Assembly (NCBI GenBank): GCA_046485285.1
Contig: JAWOHE010000010.1
Coordinates: forward strand, 1-51,129
DNA length: 51,129 bases
DNA from: a bacterium
GTDB taxonomy: Bacteria; Hydrothermota; Tepidihabitantia; Tepidihabitantales; Tepidihabitantaceae
Direction of reading: 5' to 3'
The notes beneath the pieces are model-generated. The model saw nothing but the letters and a program-made list of their open reading frames with translations. It searched no databases and was not told the origin of the DNA. Position numbers and translations under genes: made by a program. Positions 437 through 45,026 of the stretch are shown here, piece after piece. The number at the start of each line of letters is the position of its first letter. The first letter of the stretch is position 1.

Positions 437-1900
437 TCAGGGAGTGTTGCTGAGCTTCTCGACCAGCGTGCCGTCCTGCCGCCGCAGGCTGACCTCGAGC
501 GCCGCCCGGCCGAGCAGGTGGCTGGCGCAGGCGAAGCAGGGGTCGTAAGCCCGGAAGAACATCTCGACCGTGTTGAGCAGGCCGTCGTCCGCCTTGCCCT
601 TGCGCACCAGCTTCTTCGCCGCGTCGCGCACGCTCATGCAGATCGGGCCCATGTTGTTGGTCGAGGCGACGATCAGGTTGACCTTCTTGACCAACCGGTC
701 GTCGTCCAGCCAGTAGTGGTGGAAGAGCGTGCCGCGCGCCGCCTCGACCACCCCGATGCCCTCTTCCTGCATCGCGTAGTTCATGTTACGGATGTCGGTG
801 CCGGTGATGCTCTTGTCGGACGCGAGCTGGAGCGCTAACTCCGAGACATAGAGCAGTTCGACCAGCCGCGCCCAGTGGAACGCCAGCGTCGAGTTGACCG
901 GTTTCGTCTTGAAGCTGGCGTAGAGCTTCTCGTAGTGCTCCTGCGCCTTCGGCGTCGCCATCCCGTCCGCGGCGTTGAGCCGCCCCAGTGGCCCGACCCG
1001 GTAGATGCCCGACTCCGGCCCGTCGGTCAGGCCCTGGTAGCCGACAGCCTTGAGGTACGGGATCTTGACGTAGTTCCACTCGAGCACGTGCTCGGCGATG
1101 TGCTGGAGGTAGTCCCGCGCCGGGAACTTGAGGAACTCACTACCGTCCGGCGCGGTCACCCGGACCTGCCCGTCGTAGAAGTTGACGCGGTTGTTCTCGT
1201 CCACCAGGCCCATGTTGTAGGTCGCCAGCCCGAGCGCCGGGTCGGTGACCAGTTTCATGTAGTCCCGGTTGCCGAGCACCAGGTCCGCGAAGAGCCTAAG
1301 CGTGAACTCCGCGAACCCGATACAGGACCGGGCCATCCGCTCGATTTCCGCCCGCTCTTCCTCGCTCAGCGTCTTGGTCTGCCCGCCGGGCACGCCTGAG
1401 ACCGGGTGGGTCGGCTTGCCGCCGAGCAGCTCGGTTATCTTCTGCCCGTAGGCCCGGTGCTTGATGACCTCCTTCGCGACGTCGAGGCCGACTTTCTCGA
1501 TGACGCCGAGGATGTTGCGCTTCTCTTTCGGCGCGTCCGGCCCGACGACGAAGTCCGGCCCGCCGAGGAAGTAGAAGTGCAGGATGTGGTCGTAGATGAT
1601 GTAGCCGGCGTAGATCAGGTCGCGGAGCTTACGCGCGGTCGGCGTCGGCTCGACCCCGAACGCCATGTCGAGTGCCTTGGTCGAGGCGTAGTGGTGCGCC
1701 ACCGGGCAGACCCCGCAGATCCGGCTGGTGAGCTGGGGCATGTCCTCGGCCTTGCGGCCGACGCAGAACCGCTCGAACCCGCGCAGTTCCGGTACCTGCA
1801 GGTAGGCGTTGGCGACATCGCCCTTGTCGTCGAGGAAAATCTCGATCTTGCCGTGGCCCTCGAGCCGGGTAATCGGGTCAATCGTGATGCGCCTGCTCAT
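437..1900 (-). CDS. mvhA: [NiFe]-hydrogenase large subunit, MvhA-type (group 3c)
   Basis: True start MSRRITIDPITRLEGH at 1900 (TAATG overlap with mvhG). L1 motif RICGVC, L2 motif DPCFACASH plus C-terminal extension; hdr/mvhD context. Confidence 0.93.
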   Translation of the reverse strand: MSRRITIDPITRLEGHGKIEIFLDDKGDVANAYLQVPELRGFERFCVGRKAEDMPQLTSRICGVCPVAHHYASTKALDMAFGVEPTPTARKLRDLIYAGYIIYDHILHFYFLGGPDFVVGPDAPKEKRNILGVIEKVGLDVAKEVIKHRAYGQKITELLGGKPTHPVSGVPGGQTKTLSEEERAEIERMARSCIGFAEFTLRLFADLVLGNRDYMKLVTDPALGLATYNMGLVDENNRVNFYDGQVRVTAPDGSEFLKFPARDYLQHIAEHVLEWNYVKIPYLKAVGYQGLTDGPESGIYRVGPLGRLNAADGMATPKAQEHYEKLYASFKTKPVNSTLAFHWARLVELLYVSELALQLASDKSITGTDIRNMNYAMQEEGIGVVEAARGTLFHHYWLDDDRLVKKVNLIVASTNNMGPICMSVRDAAKKLVRKGKADDGLLNTVEMFFRAYDPCFACASHLLGRAALEVSLRRQDGTLVEKLSNTP

Positions 1901-24419: not shown

Positions 24420-25403
24420 GTGAGTGCGCCCCGGATGCCCAGCCCCCGCACCGACCTCTACCGGCTGATTGACCGCAACAAGCGGTCGACCGCATTCTTC
24501 ATCGTCCTGATCTCGCTCCTGCTCGGCGCGGTCGGCGCCGCGCTCGGCTGGTACTTCGGCTGGGGCTGGGGATTCTACGCGCTGTTCGGCGTGTTCATCG
24601 TCGCCTACAACCTCATCCTCTACCACAACTCCGCCCGCATCGCCCTCGCGGTCAACGGCGCGCGGCCTGCCGACCCGGTCGAACACCGCCAGCTCCACAA
24701 CGTCGTCGAGGAAGTCGCCATCGCCGCCGGCCTGCCCAAACCCGCGGTCTACGTCATCCCGACCCCGGTCCCCAACGCGTTCGCGACCGGCCGCGACCCG
24801 AAGCACGCCGCCATCGCGGTCACCGCGGGGATGCTCGAAATGATGAACCGTGACGAGCTCCAGGGCGTCGTCGCCCACGAGCTCGCCCACATCCGCAACT
24901 ACGACATCCTGCTCGCGACCGTCGTCGCCATCATCGGCGGCCTCATTGTCCTCCTCCGCGACGTCCTCCTGCGCGGGGGCCTGCTCTTCGGCGGCCGGCG
25001 CGACCGCCGCTCCGCCGGCCGCGGCGGCGGCCAGGCCGGGCTCATCATCGCGGTCGTCGGCATCGCGCTGGCGATCATCGCGCCCCTGCTCGTCGCGCTC
25101 ATCCGGGCCGCGCTCTCGCGCCAGCGCGAGTACCTCGCCGATGCCTCCGGCGCCTACATCGTCCGCAACCCGCACGGCCTCGCCTCCGCGCTCGAGAAGC
25201 TCGGCGCGAGCCACGCCCGGCTCGCGACCGCGTCCGACGCCACCGCCCACATGTTCATCGCCAGCCCGTTCGCCAAGGACCGCGCCGGCATCGCCGGCGC
25301 GTTCGCCTCCCACCCGCCGCTCGCCGACCGCGTCCGCCGCCTGCGCGCGCTGACCCTCGAGCGTCCGGAGGAGCCGACAAGACAGGAGAACAGTAAGTCC
25401 TAG
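24420..25403 (+). CDS. htpX: M48 zinc protease HtpX
   Basis: PNAFATGRDP, ELQGVVAHELAHI, SRQREYLADA, SHPP; follows lemA. Confidence 0.92.
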   Translation: MSAPRMPSPRTDLYRLIDRNKRSTAFFIVLISLLLGAVGAALGWYFGWGWGFYALFGVFIVAYNLILYHNSARIALAVNGARPADPVEHRQLHNVVEEVAIAAGLPKPAVYVIPTPVPNAFATGRDPKHAAIAVTAGMLEMMNRDELQGVVAHELAHIRNYDILLATVVAIIGGLIVLLRDVLLRGGLLFGGRRDRRSAGRGGGQAGLIIAVVGIALAIIAPLLVALIRAALSRQREYLADASGAYIVRNPHGLASALEKLGASHARLATASDATAHMFIASPFAKDRAGIAGAFASHPPLADRVRRLRALTLERPEEPTRQENSKS

Positions 25404-25422
25404 GGTCCGAACCCGGGAATCC

Positions 25423-25482
25423 CCTCTTCGTGCCTCTGTGCTTGTCCGCTGTCGCCGGGCTCCTGGTGCCTTTGTGGTGAAT
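25423..25482. repeat. solo octamer-repeat arm (CTTCGTG/CTCTGTG/CCTGGTG/CTTTGTG)
   Basis: Same unit family as the arms flanking the GxxExxY gene; lies between the convergent htpX and dnaE. Confidence 0.6.
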
Positions 25483-34867: not shown

Positions 34868-35044
34868 ATGTCAGCTCTTCTCGGCTATGTCAACAACAGC
34901 CTCAACTCAGGTGCCAGGGAAATCACCGTCCCGGCCGAGATCGTCGCGGAGTCCTCTGAAGCAGAGCTCGAAGAAGCGCGCAAGCTCTGCGCCCGGAACG
35001 GCATCAAGCTGGTGCTCCGCCAGCGCCGGTCAGGCCGGGCCTGA
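34868..35044 (+). CDS. small hypothetical protein (58 aa)
   Basis: MSALLGYVNNSLNSGAREITVPAEIV...; SD AAGGA; promoter TTGACA-N16-TACACT at 34766-34793. Confidence 0.65.
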   Translation: MSALLGYVNNSLNSGAREITVPAEIVAESSEAELEEARKLCARNGIKLVLRQRRSGRA

Positions 35045-35506
35045 CACCAGGCCCTTGCGCGGGGACCTGTCACTTCGACCAACGCCGGCCGATCTCGCTC
35101 TCCTGTCCGTCACTTCTGATCTCACGTTTCCGACTTCTGGCTCCTGACTTCGCCCGCTCTGCTTCCCCTTTGGTGCCCTGGTGCCCGCTACTCCGCTCCC
35201 GGGCCGCCAATGCTGAAGACGGCCCGGCGAACAGCAATCAGCACCCTCGGGTCAGGACCTGCCGGGTGCAGTCGAGCAGGAGTCGCTCGCAGACCTTGCC
35301 CTTGGACGTCGGATGCACGTCGCGGCCCGGGTGCATAGCCGTCGGGTCCGCACCCGCCTTCGCCGGCAGGTCGGCTTGCGATGAAGCAGGGCAACACTCG
35401 CGCCCTCGGCGCAATCGGGCTCAGGGGGGGCGGGCAGGGACCGGCGGAGTCGGGTTCGTCGGGCTAAGTCACTGTCGGGACTGCGGGTTACGCGTGGGCA
35501 GGAGCG

Positions 35507-35717
35507 CTCCGGGGGGGTATCCCGGGGATATCCCCGGGACGGTTCCGGGGGCCGCCCCGGGGACCGCTGGGGAGGCCGCTCCCGGGGCCGTCCGGGGGAC
35601 CGCTCCTGGGGATATCCCCGGGACGGTTCCCGGGGCCGCCCCGGGGACCGTCCCGGGAGCCGTCCCGGAGGCCGCCCCGGGGGCCGCTTGGGGAGGCGTC
35701 CCCGGGGCCGCTAGGGG
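35507..35717. repeat. second array with a 12-bp period (CCGGGGNNNNNC-like units)
   Basis: About 17 units, including a longer duplicated block GGGGATATCCCCGGGACGGTTCC. Confidence 0.85.
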
Positions 35718-35881
35718 AAGGCAGGTGGGGGTGGGGGTCCGGGTGCGGCTCGAAGCGCTCCGGGCCGTCTGCCGGGCCTTACCTCGCCAGCACGAGCCGG
35801 CCGGATTCGCCGGTGTCCGGCCGGCGGGCGTCGTTTTCGCCCGGCGGCGGAGGCGAGACCCCGGCCTCCGGGCGCCGGCCG

Positions 35882-36472
35882 CTAGGGCTTGTACTCGAAC
35901 TCGAGGTGGAGCTTGAGCCGCTCGCCCTTGAACTCGGGCGGGAGCTCCGGGAGCTTCTCGGTGACGAACAGGGCGCGGGTACAGGATGCGTCGTAGGCGG
36001 CGTCGCCCGAGCCCTTTTCGAGCTTGACCTCGGTTATCCGGCCGTCGCGCTCGATGACGAAGTACACCGTCGCGACAAGGGTCCGGCTCTGCCCGGCGTA
36101 GGGGTTGAGCCAGCTCTCCGAGATCCGCGCGAGGATGACGTTGAGGTAGTAGGAGTAGCCCAGTGCCTGCGCGCCCTCGACGCGCGCGCCCAGCCCCTGG
36201 CGCCGGATGACGTCACTGCTCGCCTTCGGCTTCGGCGGCTGGGGCTTCGGCTTCGACTCGGGCCGGACCTCGGCCTTCGGCTTCGGCTCGACAACCTGCG
36301 CCTTCTCCGGCTGGGTGACCGGCTGGGGCGTCCCGGCGCTGACCAGCCGGACCTGGTAGACCTGCGGCCGCTGTTTCGGACTTCTCGCGCCGAGCGCGGA
36401 GATGATGCCGAGCGTGGCGAAGAGCACGACGTGGACGACGGTCGACAGCAGCAGCTCGCGCTTCACAGACAC
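35882..36472 (-). CDS. TolA/TonB family energy transducer
   Basis: N-terminal TM helix with S...H, Pro/Lys-rich linker, C-terminal I..DG.I...SG...YD domain; tol-pal context. Confidence 0.85.
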   Translation of the reverse strand: MSVKRELLLSTVVHVVLFATLGIISALGARSPKQRPQVYQVRLVSAGTPQPVTQPEKAQVVEPKPKAEVRPESKPKPQPPKPKASSDVIRRQGLGARVEGAQALGYSYYLNVILARISESWLNPYAGQSRTLVATVYFVIERDGRITEVKLEKGSGDAAYDASCTRALFVTEKLPELPPEFKGERLKLHLEFEYKP

Positions 36473-36479
36473 GGAGTTC

Positions 36480-36983
36480 CAAACACCAAGGCACCAAGGC
36501 CGCGATGTATCAAGAGAGACCGGAGGACAGTGGCCGGCCCGCTCATCGGTCCACTACCTCACGATGCGCCTGATGCCGTCCTCCGCCAGCGGGACGTTGA
36601 AGTTGACCAGCAATCCAAGCCTGATGCCGGTCAGCTTCAGGTAGGTCAGCAACTGGGCTTCGTACAGCGACAGCATCTTCTCGACCGCCTTGACCTCGGC
36701 GATGACCCGGCCGTCAACAATGACGTCCGGGCGGAGCCCGGAGGCGATCTCCACGCCGTCGTAGACGACGGGAACTGCGACCTGGTGCTCGACCCTGAGT
36801 CCGCGCTTGCGGAGTTCGTGGACGAGGCAGGTCTCGTAGACCGACTCGAGGAGCCCGGGCCCGAGCGCCCGGTGAATCTGGACCGCCGCGTCGACGACCT
36901 CCCGGGCGGTCCGCTCGGTCTCGTCCGGTATCGGGGCAAACCGGCCGGCCCGCTGACCCCGGGTCTTGGTGTCTTCGTGTTTG
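36480..36983. mobile_element. putative GxxExxY element with 20-bp imperfect terminal inverted repeats
   Basis: CAAACACCAAGGCACCAAGG (36480-36499) versus the reverse complement of 36964-36983, CAAACACGAAGACACCAAGA (17/20 match); lies between tolR and tolA. Confidence 0.6.
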
Positions 36984-36988
36984 ATCAT
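36554..36988 (-). CDS. GxxExxY protein (PD-(D/E)XK nuclease-like)
   Basis: HRALGPGLLESVYE, RPDVIVD...EVKAV, AQLLTYL, GLLVNFN. Confidence 0.93.
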   Translation of the reverse strand: MIKHEDTKTRGQRAGRFAPIPDETERTAREVVDAAVQIHRALGPGLLESVYETCLVHELRKRGLRVEHQVAVPVVYDGVEIASGLRPDVIVDGRVIAEVKAVEKMLSLYEAQLLTYLKLTGIRLGLLVNFNVPLAEDGIRRIVR

Positions 36989-37392
36989 CGTTCCGGGAGG
37001 GCGACGAGGCCGATGTTGACGATGCCCTGCTCGCGCACCCGGCCGATGACGAACATCACCAGCCCGTAGTCGACGTTCCGGTCCGCCCGCAGGTAGACGC
37101 GGTCGTACTCGCGCCGGCCGAGCTGGTCGCCGAGCGCCTTCGGGAAGCCGGTGCGGGTCGTGCGCTGGCGGTCGACGAAGATCGTCCCGTCCTGCTGGAT
37201 GCTGATTTCGAGCCCGGACTTGTGCTGGGGCTCGATCGTCGAGGCGCGTGGCAGGTCGAGGTCTACGCCCTGGCGCCGGGCGATTGCCGAGCTGACGCCG
37301 GCGATGAGGAAGATTATCATCAGCGAGAAGCTGACGTCGGCGAGCGAGGTCATGTTCATCTCGGCCATGAACGCGAGCCGGCGCCGGCGCAC
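36985..37392 (-). CDS. tolR: TolR/ExbD family protein
   Basis: MNMTSLADV TM helix, LDLP.A, LRAD..V.YG.V. Confidence 0.88.
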   Translation of the reverse strand: MRRRRLAFMAEMNMTSLADVSFSLMIIFLIAGVSSAIARRQGVDLDLPRASTIEPQHKSGLEISIQQDGTIFVDRQRTTRTGFPKALGDQLGRREYDRVYLRADRNVDYGLVMFVIGRVREQGIVNIGLVALPER

Positions 37393-37394
37393 GG

Positions 37395-38132
37395 CTAGAT
37401 TCCTTCGCCGGCCGGCCGCGTGCGGATGTGACCGGTCAGCGCGTGGCGCCGGAAGATACCGGTGAGCTCGCTGATGAACCGGGTCATCTCGGACTCGAGG
37501 TCGCGCACCCGGGCGGTGAAGCTGTTGTAGAAGAACGCCGCCGGTATCGCGACGAGCAGGCCGACGACGGTCGTGATGAGCGCGTCGGAGATGCCCGGCG
37601 CGATGACCTGGAGCGTGACGAACTCCTGCCCGCGCAGGGCGAGGAACGAACGCAGCACGCCCTGGACCGTGCCGAGCAGGCCGAGGAACGGCGCGACGCT
37701 GGCGGTGATTGCCAGGAACGACATCCGGGCCTCGAGCCGGTCGAGCTCGCGCGACGAGGCGCGTTCCATCGCCTCGGTGAGGTTGGGTATCAACTGCTGG
37801 AGAATCTCACCCCGGTCGGGCTGGCCGGTGAGGTGCTTGTCGAGGCTGTTCCACTCCGCGACCCCGGCGAGCAGCATCGCCGACAGCGGCGAAGCGGACA
37901 GGCTGCGCGCCATCGCCTCGTAGTCGGACAGCCGCGCGCCGTGGCGGAACAGGCCCTGGAACTCGCGGGTCTGGCGCCGGGCCCGGCGCAGGCTGCGGGA
38001 CTTGCCGATGATGACCGCCCAGCTGATGACCGAGGCGAGGAGCAGGATGAGCATGATGACCTGCGCGAAGACTCCCGCGCGCAGGAACGGGTCAAAGAAG
38101 CCGCTGCCCGCGGCCGGTACTGCTTCAACCAT
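37395..38132 (-). CDS. tolQ: TolQ/ExbB/MotA proton-channel protein
   Basis: APFLGLLGTVQG, APGISDALITT..GL.VAIPA. Confidence 0.9.
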   Translation of the reverse strand: MVEAVPAAGSGFFDPFLRAGVFAQVIMLILLLASVISWAVIIGKSRSLRRARRQTREFQGLFRHGARLSDYEAMARSLSASPLSAMLLAGVAEWNSLDKHLTGQPDRGEILQQLIPNLTEAMERASSRELDRLEARMSFLAITASVAPFLGLLGTVQGVLRSFLALRGQEFVTLQVIAPGISDALITTVVGLLVAIPAAFFYNSFTARVRDLESEMTRFISELTGIFRRHALTGHIRTRPAGEGI

Positions 38133-38141
38133 GTTGTTGCG

Positions 38142-38924
38142 TCAGGGAGTTAGACGTTCGCCGGCGAGTTTCGCCTCGGTCGAGCCCGGGTATTTCTCGA
38201 CGACCGCCTCGAACTGGCGCCGGGCGGCGTCGGGCCGGTTCTGGGCGAGGTAGACGAGCCCGAGCTTGTAGGTCGCGGCCGGCACCTTATTGCCGGCCGG
38301 GTAGCGGATGAGCACCTTCTTGAACTCCTCCTCGGACCGGTTGAGCTCGCCCATCGAGTAATAGCACTCGCCGATCCAGTACTGGGCGTTGTCCGCCATC
38401 TCCGAGTCCGGGAAGAGCTGGATGAACTGCTCGAAGCCGGCGATCGCGACCTGGTGCTTGCCGCGGGTGAAGTCGAGGTAGGCGGTGTTGTAGAGCTGGT
38501 CCGGGTCGATGCCAGTTCGGACGGTGTCGGGCCGGACCGGCGTCGTGTCCGGCACTGCGACGAACTCGCCCGGCAGCGCGGAGTCGACCTCGTCCGGGAC
38601 CGCCGCGGTCTGCCAGACCCCGAGCCGGCGCCCGATCCGCGCGAGCCGCTCGTTCAGGTCGATGAGCCGTGCGTCGAGCGCCGCCAGCTCGGACTGGATC
38701 CGGGCAATCTCGGCGAGCTGCTGGGCGTGGAGCGCGCCCTGCCGGGTCTGCTCCCGCTCGATCCGGTCGTTCCGGACCGCGAGCGAGTCGAGCACGACGC
38801 CCTGGCGGACCAACTCGGAGTGCAGGCCGCAGCCCGGCAAGAAAGCCGTGACTGCCAGCAGCCCGGCCAGTACGGCACAGCCGCCCAACGCCGCCCGGCG
38901 CAGGCTACCGGCAGTCACGGTCAA
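38142..38924 (-). CDS. cpoB: CpoB/YbgF TPR protein
   Basis: Signal with lipobox-like PGC, coiled coil, A.NAQYWIGECYY, YP.GNK.P.A.YKLG. Confidence 0.88.
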   Translation of the reverse strand: MTVTAGSLRRAALGGCAVLAGLLAVTAFLPGCGLHSELVRQGVVLDSLAVRNDRIEREQTRQGALHAQQLAEIARIQSELAALDARLIDLNERLARIGRRLGVWQTAAVPDEVDSALPGEFVAVPDTTPVRPDTVRTGIDPDQLYNTAYLDFTRGKHQVAIAGFEQFIQLFPDSEMADNAQYWIGECYYSMGELNRSEEEFKKVLIRYPAGNKVPAATYKLGLVYLAQNRPDAARRQFEAVVEKYPGSTEAKLAGERLTP

Positions 38925-38943: not shown

Positions 38944-39432
38944 CTACTTCGGAAGCTCGACCTTGAACTCGGCCCGGCGGTTGAGCTGGAACTGGGTCTC
39001 GTCGTTGGTAACCAGCTTCTCCTCGCCGTAGCTGATCGTCATCAACTGGGTCGCGGGCACGCCCAGCTTGACCAGGAACGCCTTGGCCGACTCGGCCCGT
39101 CGCATCCCCAGCGCCATGTTGTACTCGGCCGTGCCGACCGGGTCGCAGTGGCCCTCGATCATCACCTGCGGCTTGACGCGGGCCTCGTTGACGATGCGGG
39201 CATTGGCCTCGAGCGTCCTCGCGTCACCCGAACGGATGTCGGAGCGGTCGAAGTCGAAGTAGATTGTCGTCAGGTTGATCCTGACCGGCTCGGGCTCGGG
39301 CTCGACAACCGGCTCGGGCTCGGGCTCGACTATCGGCTCCGGCGCGACAACCTGCTTCTTCGGGCAGCCGAGCGTCGTGACGAGCAGTCCGACGCCGACC
39401 AGCACCATAACCAGCCTGATGGCATTCTTCAT
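38944..39432 (-). CDS. pal: Pal/OmpA-family lipoprotein, copy 1
   Basis: Lipobox TLGC, IYFDFD.S.I, EGHCD..GT.EYN.ALG.RRA, SYGEE, NRRAEF. Confidence 0.9.
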   Translation of the reverse strand: MKNAIRLVMVLVGVGLLVTTLGCPKKQVVAPEPIVEPEPEPVVEPEPEPVRINLTTIYFDFDRSDIRSGDARTLEANARIVNEARVKPQVMIEGHCDPVGTAEYNMALGMRRAESAKAFLVKLGVPATQLMTISYGEEKLVTNDETQFQLNRRAEFKVELPK

Positions 39433-39479
39433 CTATCTGTCCTTCCTGGCTCGCCGCTCCCGCGGTTCACCGTATGGTT

Positions 39480-40016
39480 CTACCTGACTGGAACCTTGAA
39501 CTCAGCCCGGCGGTTCTTCTCGTACTGCGCCGGGTCATTCGTGACCAGCTGCTCCTCGCCGTAGCTGACGGTGGAGAGCTGGGTCGCGGGGATGCCCATC
39601 TTGACCAGGAACGCCTTGGCCGACTCGGCCCGCCGCATCCCCAGCGCCATGTTGTATTCGGCCGTGCCCATCGGGTCGCAGTGGCCCTCGACCGAAACCT
39701 GGAGCGCGGTTCCCGTCGCGCCCGCGTCCTTTATGTAGCGGGCGTTGGCCTCGAGGATACGCGCATCACCGGGCCGGATTTCCGACCGGTCATAGTCGAA
39801 GTAGACCGTCGCGAGCCCGTCCGACGAACCCGGTTCGCCCGGCTCGCCAAACTCACCCGGCTCGCCGAAGTCGCCGCTCATGTCGCGCAAGGCCTCGGGC
39901 GGCGGCGGCGGCGGAATCGGCTCCTCCGGCCGGACGCACTTCTTGGGACAGCCGAGCATCGATAGCAGCAGCCCGACCCCGATGACCAGCGTGAACAGCC
40001 TGGCAGAGTTCTTCAT
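39480..40016 (-). CDS. pal: Pal/OmpA-family lipoprotein, copy 2
   Basis: Lipobox MLGC and the same OmpA-domain motifs; GE(P/F) repeat linker. Confidence 0.9.
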   Translation of the reverse strand: MKNSARLFTLVIGVGLLLSMLGCPKKCVRPEEPIPPPPPPEALRDMSGDFGEPGEFGEPGEPGSSDGLATVYFDYDRSEIRPGDARILEANARYIKDAGATGTALQVSVEGHCDPMGTAEYNMALGMRRAESAKAFLVKMGIPATQLSTVSYGEEQLVTNDPAQYEKNRRAEFKVPVR

Positions 40017-43745: not shown

Positions 43746-45026
43746 GTGGCCGGGCGCAACCCGAACGGGAACGGGACCGAGTCCGGCAACCCGCTGCTGC
43801 GGTTCTTCACCGGCGGCCTCTTGCCCCGCACCTTCGCCGCCCTGCGCACCCGCAACTTCCGGCTCTACTGGTTCGGCAACGCCGTCTCGCTCACCGGCAC
43901 CTGGATGCAGAACGTCGCCCGCGGCTGGCTCGTCCTCCAGCTCACCAACTCGCCCTTCCTCGTCGGACTCGAAACCAGCATCACCTGGCTCCCCGCCCTG
44001 CTCATCTCGCTGCCGGCCGGCGTCCTCGCCGACCGCGTCAACAAGCGCAACCTGCTCATCGTCACCCAGGCCCTGCTCGCGGTCCTCGCCCTCGCCCTCG
44101 CCATCCTCTACTGGACCGGGGTCATCCGCATCGGCCACATCCTCGTCATCTCCGCGCTCGCCGGGACGGTCGCCGCGGTCGAGTCGCCGGTCCGGCTCGC
44201 CATCGTCCCCGAGCTCGTCGGCCGGGGCCGGGTCCTCAACGCGATCGCGCTCAACTCCGCGATCTTCAACGCCGCCCGCATCATCGGCCCGTCGATCGCC
44301 GGCGTCGCGCTCGGCGCGATCGGCGCCGGCGGCTGCTTCGCGGTCAACAGCGCGAGCTTCCTCGCCATCATCGTCGCGCTCGGCTTCGTCCGGCTCGACC
44401 ACGTCCCGCCCGTGCCGACCGGCGAGACGGTCTGGCAGCGCATCGTCGCCGGCCTGCGCTACGTCGGCGGCCACCCCGACATCCGGGTGCTGATGGTGAT
44501 GATCGCGGTCTTCTCCAGCTTCGGCATCGTCTACCTGCCGCTGATGCCGGTCTTCGCCCGCGACGTCTTCGGCGCCGGCCCGGGCGGCTACGGCGTGATG
44601 ATGGCCAGCCTCGGCGTCGGCGCGCTCGCCGGCGTCCTCGTCCTCGCGACGATCAGCCACACCCGCCACCGCGGCCGCATCCTCGTCGCCGGCACCGCGC
44701 TCCTCGGCCTGCTTCTCATCGTCTTCGGCCTCGTCCGCGACTTCAGGACCGGCACGCTCGTCCTCGTCGCGCTCGGCTTCTGCCAGAGCTCGGTCGCCTC
44801 GCTGACCAACAGCATCATCCAGGAACTCGCGCCCGACGCCTATCGCGGCCGGGTGATGAGCGTCTTCGCACTCAGCTTCAACGGTGTCTACCCGCTCGGC
44901 AGCTTCCTCGCCGGCGCCATCGCCCAGCGCTTCGGCGCGCCGGTCTCGGCGCTCGTCGGCGGCTGCGTGGTGCTGGTCAGCCTGGTCGTCGTCAACCTCG
45001 TCCACCCCGCCCTGCGCCGGCTCTAG
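43746..45026 (+). CDS. MFS transporter (DUF894/MFS_3-like)
   Basis: RNFRLYW.G..VS..GTWMQ, GVLADR, NAIALNS..FN.AR.IGP, RGRVMS; about 12 TM helices. Confidence 0.92.
   Translation: MAGRNPNGNGTESGNPLLRFFTGGLLPRTFAALRTRNFRLYWFGNAVSLTGTWMQNVARGWLVLQLTNSPFLVGLETSITWLPALLISLPAGVLADRVNKRNLLIVTQALLAVLALALAILYWTGVIRIGHILVISALAGTVAAVESPVRLAIVPELVGRGRVLNAIALNSAIFNAARIIGPSIAGVALGAIGAGGCFAVNSASFLAIIVALGFVRLDHVPPVPTGETVWQRIVAGLRYVGGHPDIRVLMVMIAVFSSFGIVYLPLMPVFARDVFGAGPGGYGVMMASLGVGALAGVLVLATISHTRHRGRILVAGTALLGLLLIVFGLVRDFRTGTLVLVALGFCQSSVASLTNSIIQELAPDAYRGRVMSVFALSFNGVYPLGSFLAGAIAQRFGAPVSALVGGCVVLVSLVVVNLVHPALRRL

Follow-up and report, generated by a model that had tools for sequence, protein, structure and literature searches.

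The GxxExxY gene that lies between tolR and tolA in the window (the whole stretch of 51,129 nucleotides analyzed) is very probably carried on an inserted cassette, a member of a mobile class of hairpin cassettes. The evidence comes from the absence of the gene at this position in relatives, the recurrence of the same kind of inverted arms around homologous genes, and the dispersal of gene-less copies of the arms through the genome.

The features of the region are listed in Table 1. The ATG of the cassette gene (36988−36986) overlaps the TGA of tolR (36987−36985) as the tetranucleotide ATGA at 36985−36988, through which the gene is translationally coupled to tolR; this position between tolR and tolA, with the overlap, is as the first-pass annotation had described it. 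At the other end the true start of tolA is probably the GTG at 36466 rather than the called start at 36472, because the junction alignment gives MKREL as the conserved N-terminus of the relatives. Two OmpA-family genes lie upstream of the tol genes. Within the 504-bp cassette there is no partner transposase gene, and its single ORF matched PF13366 alone in Pfam. Rfam searches of positions 35000−37500 matched no rRNA family and no family on the arms; elsewhere in that interval the only matches, to miRNA and gyrA models, were weak and at chance level.

Table 1. Positions of the cassette, the neighboring tol genes, and related repeats in the window
Feature	Position	Strand	Basis or remarks
Whole cassette, 504 bp, very probably inserted	36480..36983	-	Bounds of the inverted repeat and absence at the relatives' tolR–tolA junction; order: 5' arm, GxxExxY gene, 52-nt trailer, 3' arm
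Gene-proximal (5') arm	36962..36983	-	Sense strand CAAACACGAAGACACCAAGACC; two CACNAAG words 8 nt apart
Distal (3') arm	36480..36501	-	Sense strand GGCCTTGGTGCCTTGGTGTTTG
13-nt direct repeat (GGCCGGCCCGCT[C/G])	36532..36544, partner 36943-36955	.	92%; just inside each arm
GxxExxY / PDDEXK_3 gene, 144 aa	36554..36988	-	HMM matches
tolR/exbD (ExbD/TolR)	36985..37392	-	HMM matches
tolA-like gene (TonB_2, TonB C-terminal domain)	35882..36472 as called	-	HMM matches
TolQ	37395-38132	-	HMM matches
YbgF	38142-38924	-	HMM matches
Gene-less hairpin of the same family, apparently decayed, loop core GGGTCCGAACCC	25367..25446	.	nhmmer E 6.8e-7; between convergent genes
Weak CACCAGG / CCTGGTG arm pair, apparently decayed	35047..35186	.	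Fold of 35030-35200; missing from the nhmmer match list

The tolR locus was compared in 29 relatives. None had a GxxExxY gene there, and tolA was the next gene after tolR in all 29; the gene is thus not syntenic within the tol operons. Empty orthologous junctions, which the first-pass annotation had proposed to look for, were found in three congeners: tolR and tolA overlap as TGATGA in G001, and are separated by 55 nt in G002 and by 54 nt without words in G004. In another genome of the genus, G003, the junction is 103 nt long and holds a gene-less CACCAAG hairpin. The spacers of the congeners are too diverged to place the cassette ends to the nucleotide or to define a target-site duplication. 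G003 also has a cassette at another position, adjoining the ortholog of the MFS gene at 43746−45026 of the window (84.5% DNA identity). In the window, ruvB comes next after this MFS gene, across a spacer of 14 nt; nothing in this genome matches the DNA of the other neighbor of the G003 cassette, which keeps the comparison of filled and empty sites from being clean. Sequencing reads were uninformative on excision and expression: one DNA run contained 0.17 of the sampled words, and three runs gave short contigs of other organisms, mostly <90% alike and lying on conserved parts of tolQ and tolR, none of which spans the cassette; they contained no joints, excision junctions, circles, or empty-site reads. 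For annotation, the case shows that finding a gene inside a conserved operon, as in tolQ-tolR-X-tolA, does not by itself make it part of the same pathway.

The two arms form an inverted repeat of 22 nt with 86% complementarity (19/22) and are composed of CACNAAG words. An imperfect inverted repeat bracketing the gene had been noted before, with one arm in the first codons (KHEDTKT). Both points hold, the gene-proximal arm covering codons 2−9 (translated IKHEDTKT); the size then given, 20 bp with 17/20 matches, was slightly too small. A role for this arm-encoded N-terminus as a functional peptide was considered and rejected, on the low confidence of the structural model there and the frequent location of the first start codon of relatives downstream of the arm. 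The distal arm ends 7 nt before the called start of tolA and 13 nt before the likely one. The 13-nt direct repeat inside the arms contains the palindrome GGCCGGCC and lengthens the terminal stem in the predicted fold. Taken alone, the cassette repeat is modestly above chance for GC-rich DNA: it is one of 24 pairs listed, among which others have 83−87% over 15−18 nt. Its weight therefore comes from its recurrence at homologous genes and throughout the genome, not from the 19/22 match alone.

Within the window, the 16-mer CACCAAGGCACCAAGG was found with at most three mismatches at four sites (25461, 35168, 36484, and 36964). Shuffled versions of the window contained a mean of 0.28 such sites, and four were reached in 0 of 100 shuffles. 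The sites outside the cassette, at 25423−25482 and about 35168, had been described as solo arms. They are not solo, the first being accompanied by the nhmmer match at 25367−25446 and the second lying among arms that fold together in 35030−35200; both look like decayed hairpins. The arms at 35047−35186 surround heptamer-rich DNA with the words GAAGTCA, GAAGTCG, and GAAGTGA on the minus strand.

The flanks of GxxExxY genes were then scored at 92 usable loci, drawn from relatives and from 15 named phyla, among which related genomes are not independent samples. An inverted repeat scoring at least 14 was present in the flanks of 63 of the 92 loci and in none of the flank-versus-gene decoys (0/92 and 0/92), so the enrichment of arms around these genes, set as a test by the first-pass annotation, was found. 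Phased words pointing inward in both flanks occurred at 51/92 loci, compared with 3/92 in the outward control. Seven armless paralogs of 267−282 aa scored just 7−11. Arm-to-arm identity was 92−97% at word positions 1−3 and 5−7, whereas position 4 agreed in just 62% of cases and position 8 in 49%, close to the 52% and 44% of a register shifted by one unit. Mismatches between the arms on the sense strand comprised 48 G·T and 54 A·C, and thus had no wobble asymmetry. By these patterns, what the arms conserve is the word C-R-C-n-R-R-G, not base pairing. Because the words are conserved, the pairing is not, and wobble asymmetry is absent, protein-binding ends fit the arms better than an RNA stem does.

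The type of word was also related to the phylogeny of the protein. Arm class changed 14 times on the protein tree, compared with 25−33 times in 300 shuffles, a difference to be read with the poor resolution of the tree (54 of 89 forks open) and with the fact that arms simply inherited along with the gene would follow the protein tree in any case. At the level of sequence comparison, these counts show that arm word type follows protein clade. Phylum changed 34 times on the 74 tips; as judged from this tree, transfer has carried the gene family between phyla. The upstream neighbor was co-oriented with the GxxExxY gene in 57 of 63 callable loci, and from this co-orientation with a host gene we infer that the cassettes are transcribed by read-through. 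A literature search found no published description of a GxxExxY cassette with word arms.

Copies of the words are dispersed through the genome. The genome contains 64 arrays of at least two words, whereas five Markov-2 simulations gave 14, 4, 5, 8, and 11, and 49 of the 64 are not within genes, as judged by a crude gene calling that assigned 76% of the genome to genes. Gene-less hairpins were identified by nhmmer at 26 loci, 10 of which are the profile seeds. These hairpins are about 85 nt long, have arms like those of the cassette, and share identity with the cassette arms over 18−20 nt: the gene-proximal arm matches an arm of the hairpin at C96:26909−26992 in 19/19 positions and one at C69 in 20/20, and the distal arm matches the 3' arm of the hairpin at C3:5368−5449 in 18/18. 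We take them to be a miniature, non-autonomous form of the cassette. Because the hairpin, loop core included, is almost a palindrome, its two strands often score nearly alike; its orientation is mixed among co-directional gene pairs.

Insertion polymorphism of the hairpins was scored at two loci. The C81 spacer measures about 250 nt and contains hairpins in this genome (G000), whereas it is 18−96 nt and without hairpins in 4/4 congeners. For C96 the spacer here is about 200 nt long, compared with 17−23 nt or about 10 nt in the 3/3 congeners found. A further locus, C48, was unscorable, one flank alone being conserved in congeners. By comparison of the spacer sequences, the hairpins tested at C81 and C96 are shown to be insertions relative to the congeners.

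The cassette protein belongs to a known nuclease family. It matched PF13366 (PDDEXK_3) with an E-value of 2.1e-40 and 138.2 bits (cut-off 22) and TIGR04256 (GxxExxY) with 1.2e-41 and 141.7 bits (cut-off 35), and has the family motif as G45-L-L-E48-S-V-Y51. In a table of PD-(D/E)XK families, one survey lists the function of PDDEXK_3/GxxExxY as 'Unknown' (PMC3424549). The family is large: among 1.84 billion cluster representatives searched, 37,747 matched at E ≤0.001 and 17,283 at ≤1e-10. Residues G45, E48, Y51, D88, E98, and K100 were invariant in 15 homologs; among 84 sequences E98 and K100 were invariant and D88 was kept in at least 90%. The dN/dS ratio between the cassette gene and the copy in a congener was 0.20. 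Sequence conservation of this kind shows that the protein is under purifying selection and keeps its predicted catalytic residues. The AlphaFold model had a pLDDT of 92.7, with the nuclease core in residues 22−144 and low confidence in the arm-encoded residues 1−20. Its best structural neighbors are all PD-(D/E)XK nucleases: the Cas4 protein SSO0001 (Z 8.0, rmsd 4.4, 100 residues aligned), BpuSI (7.8), and Hjc (6.7). Foldseek found no match in the PDB at E 0.001 or better, and a sequence search of solved structures gave no match (best E 0.47). Fused two-domain forms occur among the best homolog matches, which suggests that the working unit may be a dimer. Among the PADLOC defense models there was one weak partial match (RTasPDDEXK, E 0.0026, 15.5 bits), and no PHROGs family matched the protein.

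Arrays and genes do not always occur together in relatives. G001 (91% complete, 440 contigs) has 72 arrays and no PF13366 match was found in it; several of its arrays are at contig ends, and a repeat-flanked gene may be missing from the assembly. In G013 (97% complete), which has 233 arrays, the sole PF13366 match is a decayed fragment with GAT-type arms, and in G018, with 154 arrays, the three gene copies have other arm types or are truncated. Hairpins thus remain in G001 and G013 although their assemblies contain no intact cognate gene. The first-pass annotation had suggested a family of micro-repeat elements, and other micro-repeat families were recognized: genes of the four-helix-bundle family PF05635, in this genome and in relatives (31 matches in G013 and 13 in G021), are boxed by other tandem words. 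A tandem-word inverted repeat scoring at least 12 was present at 11 of 19 PF05635 loci, and CRCnRRG words at 0 of the 19. Because PF05635 genes, which are unrelated to GxxExxY, have the same boxed architecture with other words, shared machinery could move both kinds of cassette.

Our best explanation is a promoter-less selfish cassette with hairpin derivatives and nuclease-driven movement; as a whole we would give it an even chance of being correct. The cassette, with one small PD-(D/E)XK gene, very probably inserted in the tolR–tolA spacer of this lineage. Its arms are two inverted arrays of the 7-nt word C-R-C-n-R-R-G (here CACNAAG), repeated every 8−9 nt, and the nuclease, as a dimer or higher oligomer, would bind the repeated words of both arms as sequence-specific end sites. 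It would then bring the ends together and cut at or near the outer CAC ends, and host repair or replication would finish excision, insertion, or copying. The same enzyme would act in trans on the gene-less hairpins, much as RAYTs are believed to act on REPINs. That the encoded nuclease is the mobilizing enzyme, as the first-pass annotation had proposed, is a serious candidate claim, in which our confidence falls somewhat short of that in the explanation as a whole; the hairpins of G001, G013, and G018 weigh against it, and we know of no precedent for transposition by a 120-aa PD-(D/E)XK protein on its own. A broader proposal is tentative, and we think it rather unlikely to hold: that GxxExxY cassettes and their hairpins form an undescribed superfamily of mobile DNA, in which a nuclease of about 120 aa alone recognizes and cuts the ends through phased 7-nt words, with the PF05635 elements, including the ORF-bearing intervening sequences (IVSs) of 23S rRNA, as a sister branch.

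Movement of the word arms might instead be due to some other trans-acting enzyme of the host or of another element, with GxxExxY, like PF05635, as cargo that aids persistence (by addiction, defense, or as a repair nuclease, for example). The abundance of hairpins without an intact cognate gene in G001 and G013 would be expected if this were so, as would the similar boxing of PF05635 genes. Against it, the CRCnRRG words are specific to GxxExxY across 15 phyla and are absent from the PF05635 loci, and arm class tracks protein clade; if a single machinery moved both, a single type of end would be expected. The searches for a defense role also gave no convincing family (best PADLOC E 0.0026) and no PHROG family. 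We consider this passenger role for the protein unlikely, although less so than the two explanations that follow.

Pairing of the arms in the transcript is a further possibility, in which cutting by RNase III or insulation, as in an IVS, makes the insert tolerated and releases the mRNA, with DNA movement a separate matter. In its favor, the ends of the cassette are paired in both the MFE and centroid folds of its sense RNA (-252.8 kcal/mol, z -3.26), co-orientation with the upstream gene implies read-through transcription, RNase III cuts the terminal inverted repeats of ORF-bearing IVSs (PMC4990558), and boxed genes of the IVS ORF family, PF05635, occur outside rRNA both here and in related genomes. 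Against it, the ends of the + strand DNA are likewise paired in both folds, and it folds equally well (z -3.14). The IVS stem is 28 bp long with one mismatch and a bulge (PMC4990558), unlike the mismatch-rich word arms, in which the low pairing at positions 4 and 8 places a mismatch at about every fourth base, with no excess of G·U over A·C on the sense strand. Pairing alone would also leave the insertion polymorphism and the conserved words unexplained, and we judge an RNA-level role to be quite improbable. Least probable of all, to the point that we give it almost no credence, is an ordinary vertically inherited accessory gene beside a chance repeat in GC-rich DNA. The 19/22 repeat does stand out little from the chance repeats elsewhere in these 900 nt, and in GC content the cassette (0.659) differs little from the window (0.693). 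Such a gene is difficult to reconcile with absence at the junction in 29/29 relatives, with an architecture present at 63/92 homologs and 0/92 decoys, and with 64 same-word arrays compared with 4−14 in simulations.

The nuclease-driven cassette proposed here resembles several known systems. In the parts of PMC3116915 and PMC3337134 that describe them, REPIN/RAYT systems likewise have one gene flanked by its own inverted repeats together with many extragenic gene-less hairpin copies, these copies being miniature and non-autonomous, and repeat families tied to gene lineages. The RAYT is an HUH/Y1 tyrosine transposase and REP a palindrome of 20−40 nt, whereas the cassette enzyme is of the PD-(D/E)XK type and its arms are 7-nt words every 8−9 nt. 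The cassette differs further in that its gene lies inside the hairpin loop, is expressed by host read-through, and belongs to a family spread across phyla. With the IVSs of 23S rRNA, as presented in the relevant sections of PMC4990558, the cassette shares a small ORF (about 120 aa) looped out between terminal inverted repeats, a location inside a transcribed unit that is left undestroyed, and a sporadic, horizontally spread distribution. It lies in the spacer of an mRNA operon rather than in an rRNA helix, its cargo is a nuclease rather than the S23p / PF05635 four-helix bundle, and its arms are mismatch-rich word arrays rather than a near-perfect 28-bp stem (PMC4990558). In those sections the origin and movement of IVSs are still called unclear (PMC4990558).

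The cassette can also be set beside transposons with terminal inverted repeats, their MITEs, and Foldback elements, to which it is similar in having inverted ends of repeated motifs, gene-bearing and many gene-less forms, and a presence that varies between related genomes. Inverted ends made of several short motifs are found in Tn7, in Ac/Ds (hexamers), and in En/Spm (12-mers), and the eukaryotic Foldback elements have arms of tandem repeats. PD-(D/E)XK nucleases are themselves tied to mobile DNA in TnsA of Tn7, the homing endonuclease I-Ssp6803I, and the Rpn proteins. The cassette protein has the same catalytic fold and motif (D88, E98, K100), and this fold cuts DNA in transposition, homing, and recombination. 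The transposons and MITEs differ from the cassette, which is about 500 bp long, has no DDE, serine, tyrosine, or HUH transposase, and has insertions that are biased in orientation and downstream of host genes. Another family of the fold, PDDEXK_2, appears as a 'putative transposase' in the table of the survey (PMC3424549).

Should the gene and its word arms move as a single unit, an abundant orphan gene family in at least 15 phyla would be accounted for. It would also explain the intergenic hairpin repeats that fill operon spacers and break metagenome assemblies, such as the G001 arrays at contig ends, and would bring a further fold to the few kinds of enzyme behind miniature mobile DNA. A link to the ORF-bearing rRNA intervening sequences would, in addition, suggest a testable account of the origin and movement of IVSs.

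The 144-aa product matched PF13366 (PDDEXK_3) in Pfam (E 2.1e-40) and TIGR04256 (GxxExxY) in NCBIfam (E 1.2e-41). Its gene lies in a minus-strand tol-type cluster with the order two OmpA-family genes, ybgF, tolQ, tolR/exbD, the GxxExxY gene, and a TonB_2/TolA-like gene. The first-pass annotation had described the gene as boxed by an inverted repeat between tolR and tolA, with its ATG on the tolR stop; ORF analysis, HMM searches and a repeat finder agreed, although the arms were slightly longer than the 20 bp (17/20) reported there, being 22 nt with complementarity at 19 of 22 positions. Read on the sense strand, the 5' arm is CAAACACGAAGACACCAAGACC and spans codons 2-9 of the gene; the 3' arm, GGCCTTGGTGCCTTGGTGTTTG, follows the stop codon at a distance of 52 nt and leaves 7-13 nt to the tolA start. 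The GxxExxY ATG and the tolR TGA overlap as ATGA. Because the window gene has no further in-frame start ahead of the conserved domain, its translation is probably coupled to that of tolR.

Several other features were seen in and around the cluster. The OmpA-family (Pal-like) genes form a tandem pair ahead of ybgF-tolQ-tolR, and the resulting order pal-pal-ybgF-tolQ-tolR-tolA is unlike that of E. coli; the part inspected showed no tolB. GC-rich repeated and palindromic units (GGGGATATCCCCGGGACGGTTCC..., CCCCGGGGACCG...) separate the tolA-like gene from the next ORF; in Rfam this block drew nothing beyond weak chance matches with miRNA families (E 0.01-0.2, far under the gathering scores). A run of heptamer-like words (plus strand GACTTCT, GACTTCG, CACTTCG) within a weak CACCAGG/CCTGGTG arm pair may be the "heptamer element" of the annotation.

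Coordinates of features in the window and in other contigs (C numbers) of the same genome
Feature	Location	Strand	Remark
GxxExxY gene	36554-36988	minus	144-aa ORF
tolR/exbD	36985-37392	minus	
TonB_2/TolA-like gene	35882-36472	minus	
Inverted arms	36480-36501 / 36962-36983		
OmpA-family pair	38944-40016		
GC-rich units	35490-35720		
Heptamer-like run	35060-35160		
Gene near ruvB	43746-45026		
PF05635 gene	C42:14307-14624		L181
PF05635 gene	C15:5330-5641		L185
PF05635 gene	C72:14644-14958		L189
PF05635 gene	C42:9242-9553		L192
PF05635 gene	C65:2501-2797		L196
Second-family hairpin	C81:6400-8400, locus positions ~830-960		L147
Tandem half-hairpins	C7:5315-5586		period 51 nt
Tandem half-hairpins	C98:26294-26441		period 66 nt

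The tolR-tolA junction was compared among relatives. TolR was present in 30 of the 31 genomes searched, the window genome counted; tolA came next after tolR at all 29 relatives' loci, and none of these had a GxxExxY match. Empty junctions, for which the annotation had suggested looking, occur in three congeners: tolR and tolA overlap as TGATGA in G001, stop on start, and the spacers of G002 (55 nt) and G004 (54 nt) lack the words of the arms. From these sequence comparisons we conclude that the cassette in the window is an insertion. The fourth congener, G003, has a 103-nt spacer with a gene-less hairpin ending in AAACACCAAGACACCAAGTACACCAAGG and CTCTTGGTGCCTTGGTGTT. Because TolR identity, a crude proxy for phylogeny, puts G002 and G004 (87%) nearer to the window genome than G003 (83%), the pattern points to two insertion events at this junction or to clean losses. 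The GxxExxY gene of G003, 69% identical to that of the window and its sister on the tree (support 95), is sited elsewhere, adjoining the ortholog of a window gene that is followed, after a 14-nt spacer, by ruvB. The spacer is enlarged in two other relatives as well: that of G013 (L040) is 222 nt and contains inverted AATGACC-like words by eye, and G032 (L056) has a gap of 325 nt. Insertions may have landed at this junction repeatedly.

Arms were then sought around GxxExxY genes in general, in the relatives and in 80 loci from named public genomes (the best 80; 592 of 603 pattern matches encode a relative). The gene was carried by 97 sampled loci, 92 of them with enough flank, and an ungapped inverted match of at least 14 was scored between the 230 nt upstream of the domain and the 250 nt after the stop. 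Such a match was found at 63 of the 92 loci and at none of the 92 in either decoy comparison, in which each flank was matched with the gene interior; the window arms scored 14.5, and the decoy maximum was 12.5. The same flanks in direct orientation reached at least 14 at 19 loci, which we attribute to neighbouring hairpins. Phased C[AG]CNRRG words pointed inward in both flanks at 51 loci and outward at 3. The enrichment that the annotation had proposed to check is thus present, and by these sequence criteria the gene-plus-arms architecture is general. As an internal control, seven paralogs of 267-282 aa from the relatives, which match the domain in their N-terminal part, were armless (scores 7-11; L015-L018, L021, L022 and L027, in G024, G034, G019, G016, G015, G006 and G035). 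This conserved paralog, not found in the window genome by PF13366, may be vertically inherited or domesticated. The arm unit varied by locus (CACNAAG, CGCNAAG, CACNGAG, CACGACGG, CRCNGAT) and tracked the protein clade, with 14 changes on 67 labelled tips versus 25-33 in 300 shuffles, on a weak tree (54 of 89 forks open) and in a pattern that co-inheritance would also yield; for host phylum the figures were 34 changes on 74 tips versus 40-48 shuffled.

One PF13366 gene was found in the window genome (88% complete, 102 contigs). Arrays of at least two CACNRRG words at 8-9-nt spacing numbered 64, versus 14, 4, 5, 8 and 11 in five second-order Markov simulations, and 49 of them lay outside gene calls (crude, GC3-based, covering 76% of the genome). 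Many are hairpins of ~85 nt: AAC/AAA on the outside, two CACNAAG words, a loop whose core is CTCCGGGGTCCGAACCC, two CTTNGTG words and finally GTT. A profile built from ten hairpins identified 26 distinct loci, 22 outside the crude gene calls. Hairpin arms are identical to the cassette arms across 18-20 nt, and the octamer CCGGGGTC just inside the cassette 5' arm recurs at the corresponding position of four hairpins. Two hairpin loci were comparable with congeners; a third, on C48, lacked one conserved flank. The spacer on C81 is ~250 nt in the window genome, with a CACNAAG hairpin and a hairpin of a second family (GACGGRR), versus 18, 54, 96 and 29 nt, without hairpins, in G001, G002, G003 and G004. 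That on C96 is ~200 nt versus 17 (G002), 23 (G004) and ~10 nt (G003). The second-family hairpin, which directly adjoins the CACNAAG hairpin on C81 and is absent in the four congeners, has GACGGRR words in one arm and CCCGGTC-like words in the other. Tandem half-hairpins of the CACNAAG words were seen on C7 and C98.

In the protein, G45, E48, Y51, D88, E98 and K100 are shared by all of 15 homologs; in a set of 84 sequences E98 and K100 did not vary and D88 was conserved in at least 90%. The AlphaFold model had a pLDDT of 92.7, with low confidence confined to the arm-encoded first 20 residues. Its structural neighbours were all PD-(D/E)XK nucleases (Cas4 SSO0001, Z 8.0; BpuSI nuclease domain, 7.8; CinB, 7.4; TT1808, 7.2; Hjc, 6.7), middling values that show the fold of the model, not the function. 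The dN/dS versus the G003 copy was 0.20 (130 codons; dS ~1, near saturation). The family comprises 37,747 cluster representatives at E <=0.001, and 16 of the best 23 matches were 240-295 aa long with two matched stretches each. In the three fused two-domain proteins inspected (P0001, P0002, P0005) the second domain lacked the ExK motif, so that these are pseudo-dimers with one active site; the fusions with loss of the second ExK suggest that the working unit is a dimer and that a single active site can be enough. A PD-(D/E)XK superfamily survey lists the function of PDDEXK_3 as "Unknown", with "multiple transfers" (PMC3424549). Among the papers listed from the open literature, GxxExxY is mentioned in passing only.

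The upstream neighbour was co-oriented with the GxxExxY gene at 57 of 63 callable loci, the downstream neighbour at 43 of 57, and both at 29 of the 41 loci with both called, strand being taken crudely from the longest ORF. Because of this co-orientation the cassettes, including that of the window, behave like inserts that lack a promoter and are reached by read-through from host genes.

Counts of CACNRRGNCACNRRG, with a reversed-pattern control in parentheses, were 59 (3) in the window genome, 72 (4) in G001, 50 (4) in G003, 233 (32) in G013, 69 (12) in G014, 154 (1) in G018 and 167 (14) in G021; of the remaining 34 genomes, four (G004, G010, G029, G032) had 13-17 and 30 had at most 12. No PF13366 match was found in G001 (91% complete), but because several of its arrays lie at contig ends of a 440-contig assembly, a repeat-flanked gene may simply be unassembled. 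The sole match in G013 (97% complete) is a decayed fragment (L064, on C7). It and a decayed copy in G018 (L066, on C123), truncated and followed by a further hairpin, share one site across two genera, flanked by a tRNA gene and a deoB-like gene, and have CACGGAT/CACAGAT-type arms (CACGGAT-type at L064). The other two G018 copies have CGCCAAG and CACAGAT arms. Array counts against gene copies in these three genomes indicate that hairpins outlast or outnumber resident cognate genes. This speaks against the nuclease as mobiliser; it would fit relics, trans-action from other lineages or a different mobiliser. The reading as an autonomous-looking element in the tol operon is supported with respect to insertion, recurrence and gene-less derivatives.

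Over the 63 loci, arm columns comprised 1597 Watson-Crick pairs, 48 sense G.T, 54 A.C and 106 other mismatches. Because A.C on the sense strand is G.T on the antisense strand, neither strand has a wobble excess. Agreement between arms (55 elements, 137 units) was 92-97% at word positions 1-3 and 5-7, 62% at position 4 and 49% in the spacer; a one-unit register shift gave 52% at position 4 and 44% in the spacer. Conservation therefore falls on the word C-R-C-n-R-R-G, arranged in inverted arrays, and not on complementarity as such. Some transposon ends carry multiple subterminal motifs, and by analogy we read the arms as putative arrays of protein-binding sites rather than as a processing stem. 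A 521-nt stretch is nonetheless predicted to fold with its ends paired, both as sense RNA (z -3.26) and as plus-strand DNA (z -3.14), and hairpin or cruciform forms may be substrates. The mechanism we favour, tentatively, is that the encoded nuclease would bind the arm words specifically at the ends and would cut there. The passenger model, in which another enzyme would move the cassette and the nuclease would be cargo, ranks next and seems to us rather unlikely. A mainly RNA-level role of the arms ranks after it and is improbable.

A second protein family bears on these readings. PF05635, a four-helix-bundle family, is the one to which the ORFs in 23S rRNA intervening sequences (IVSs) belong. 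In PMC4990558, the terminal inverted repeats of the IVS are described as making a 28-bp stem, with excision by RNase III, IVS origin is called still unclear, and Ralph and McClelland (1993) are cited for the idea that the IVS ORF might encode a mobility component. Among the papers listed from the open literature for the PF05635 names, titles and abstract openings pointed to none on flanking repeats. PF05635 matches numbered 7 in the window genome (5 above the cut-off), 31 in G013 and 13 in G021. Two of the five window-genome genes have inverted tandem-word arms, of CAGCTTA and GGTTCAT. Among 19 loci with usable flanks, 11 had an inverted match of at least 12 and 8 of at least 14; arm words included GGGAGGA, GACCAAGA, GGAGTTAGCA, GGTTCAT, GAGGAATGAGGA and AATGACC, and CRCnRRG words were found at none of the 19. 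This cuts both ways for the mechanism: each protein family has its own type of word, but the one design is common to two unrelated proteins. The PF05635 genes with their other tandem-word arms support the annotation's suggestion of a wider family of micro-repeat elements.
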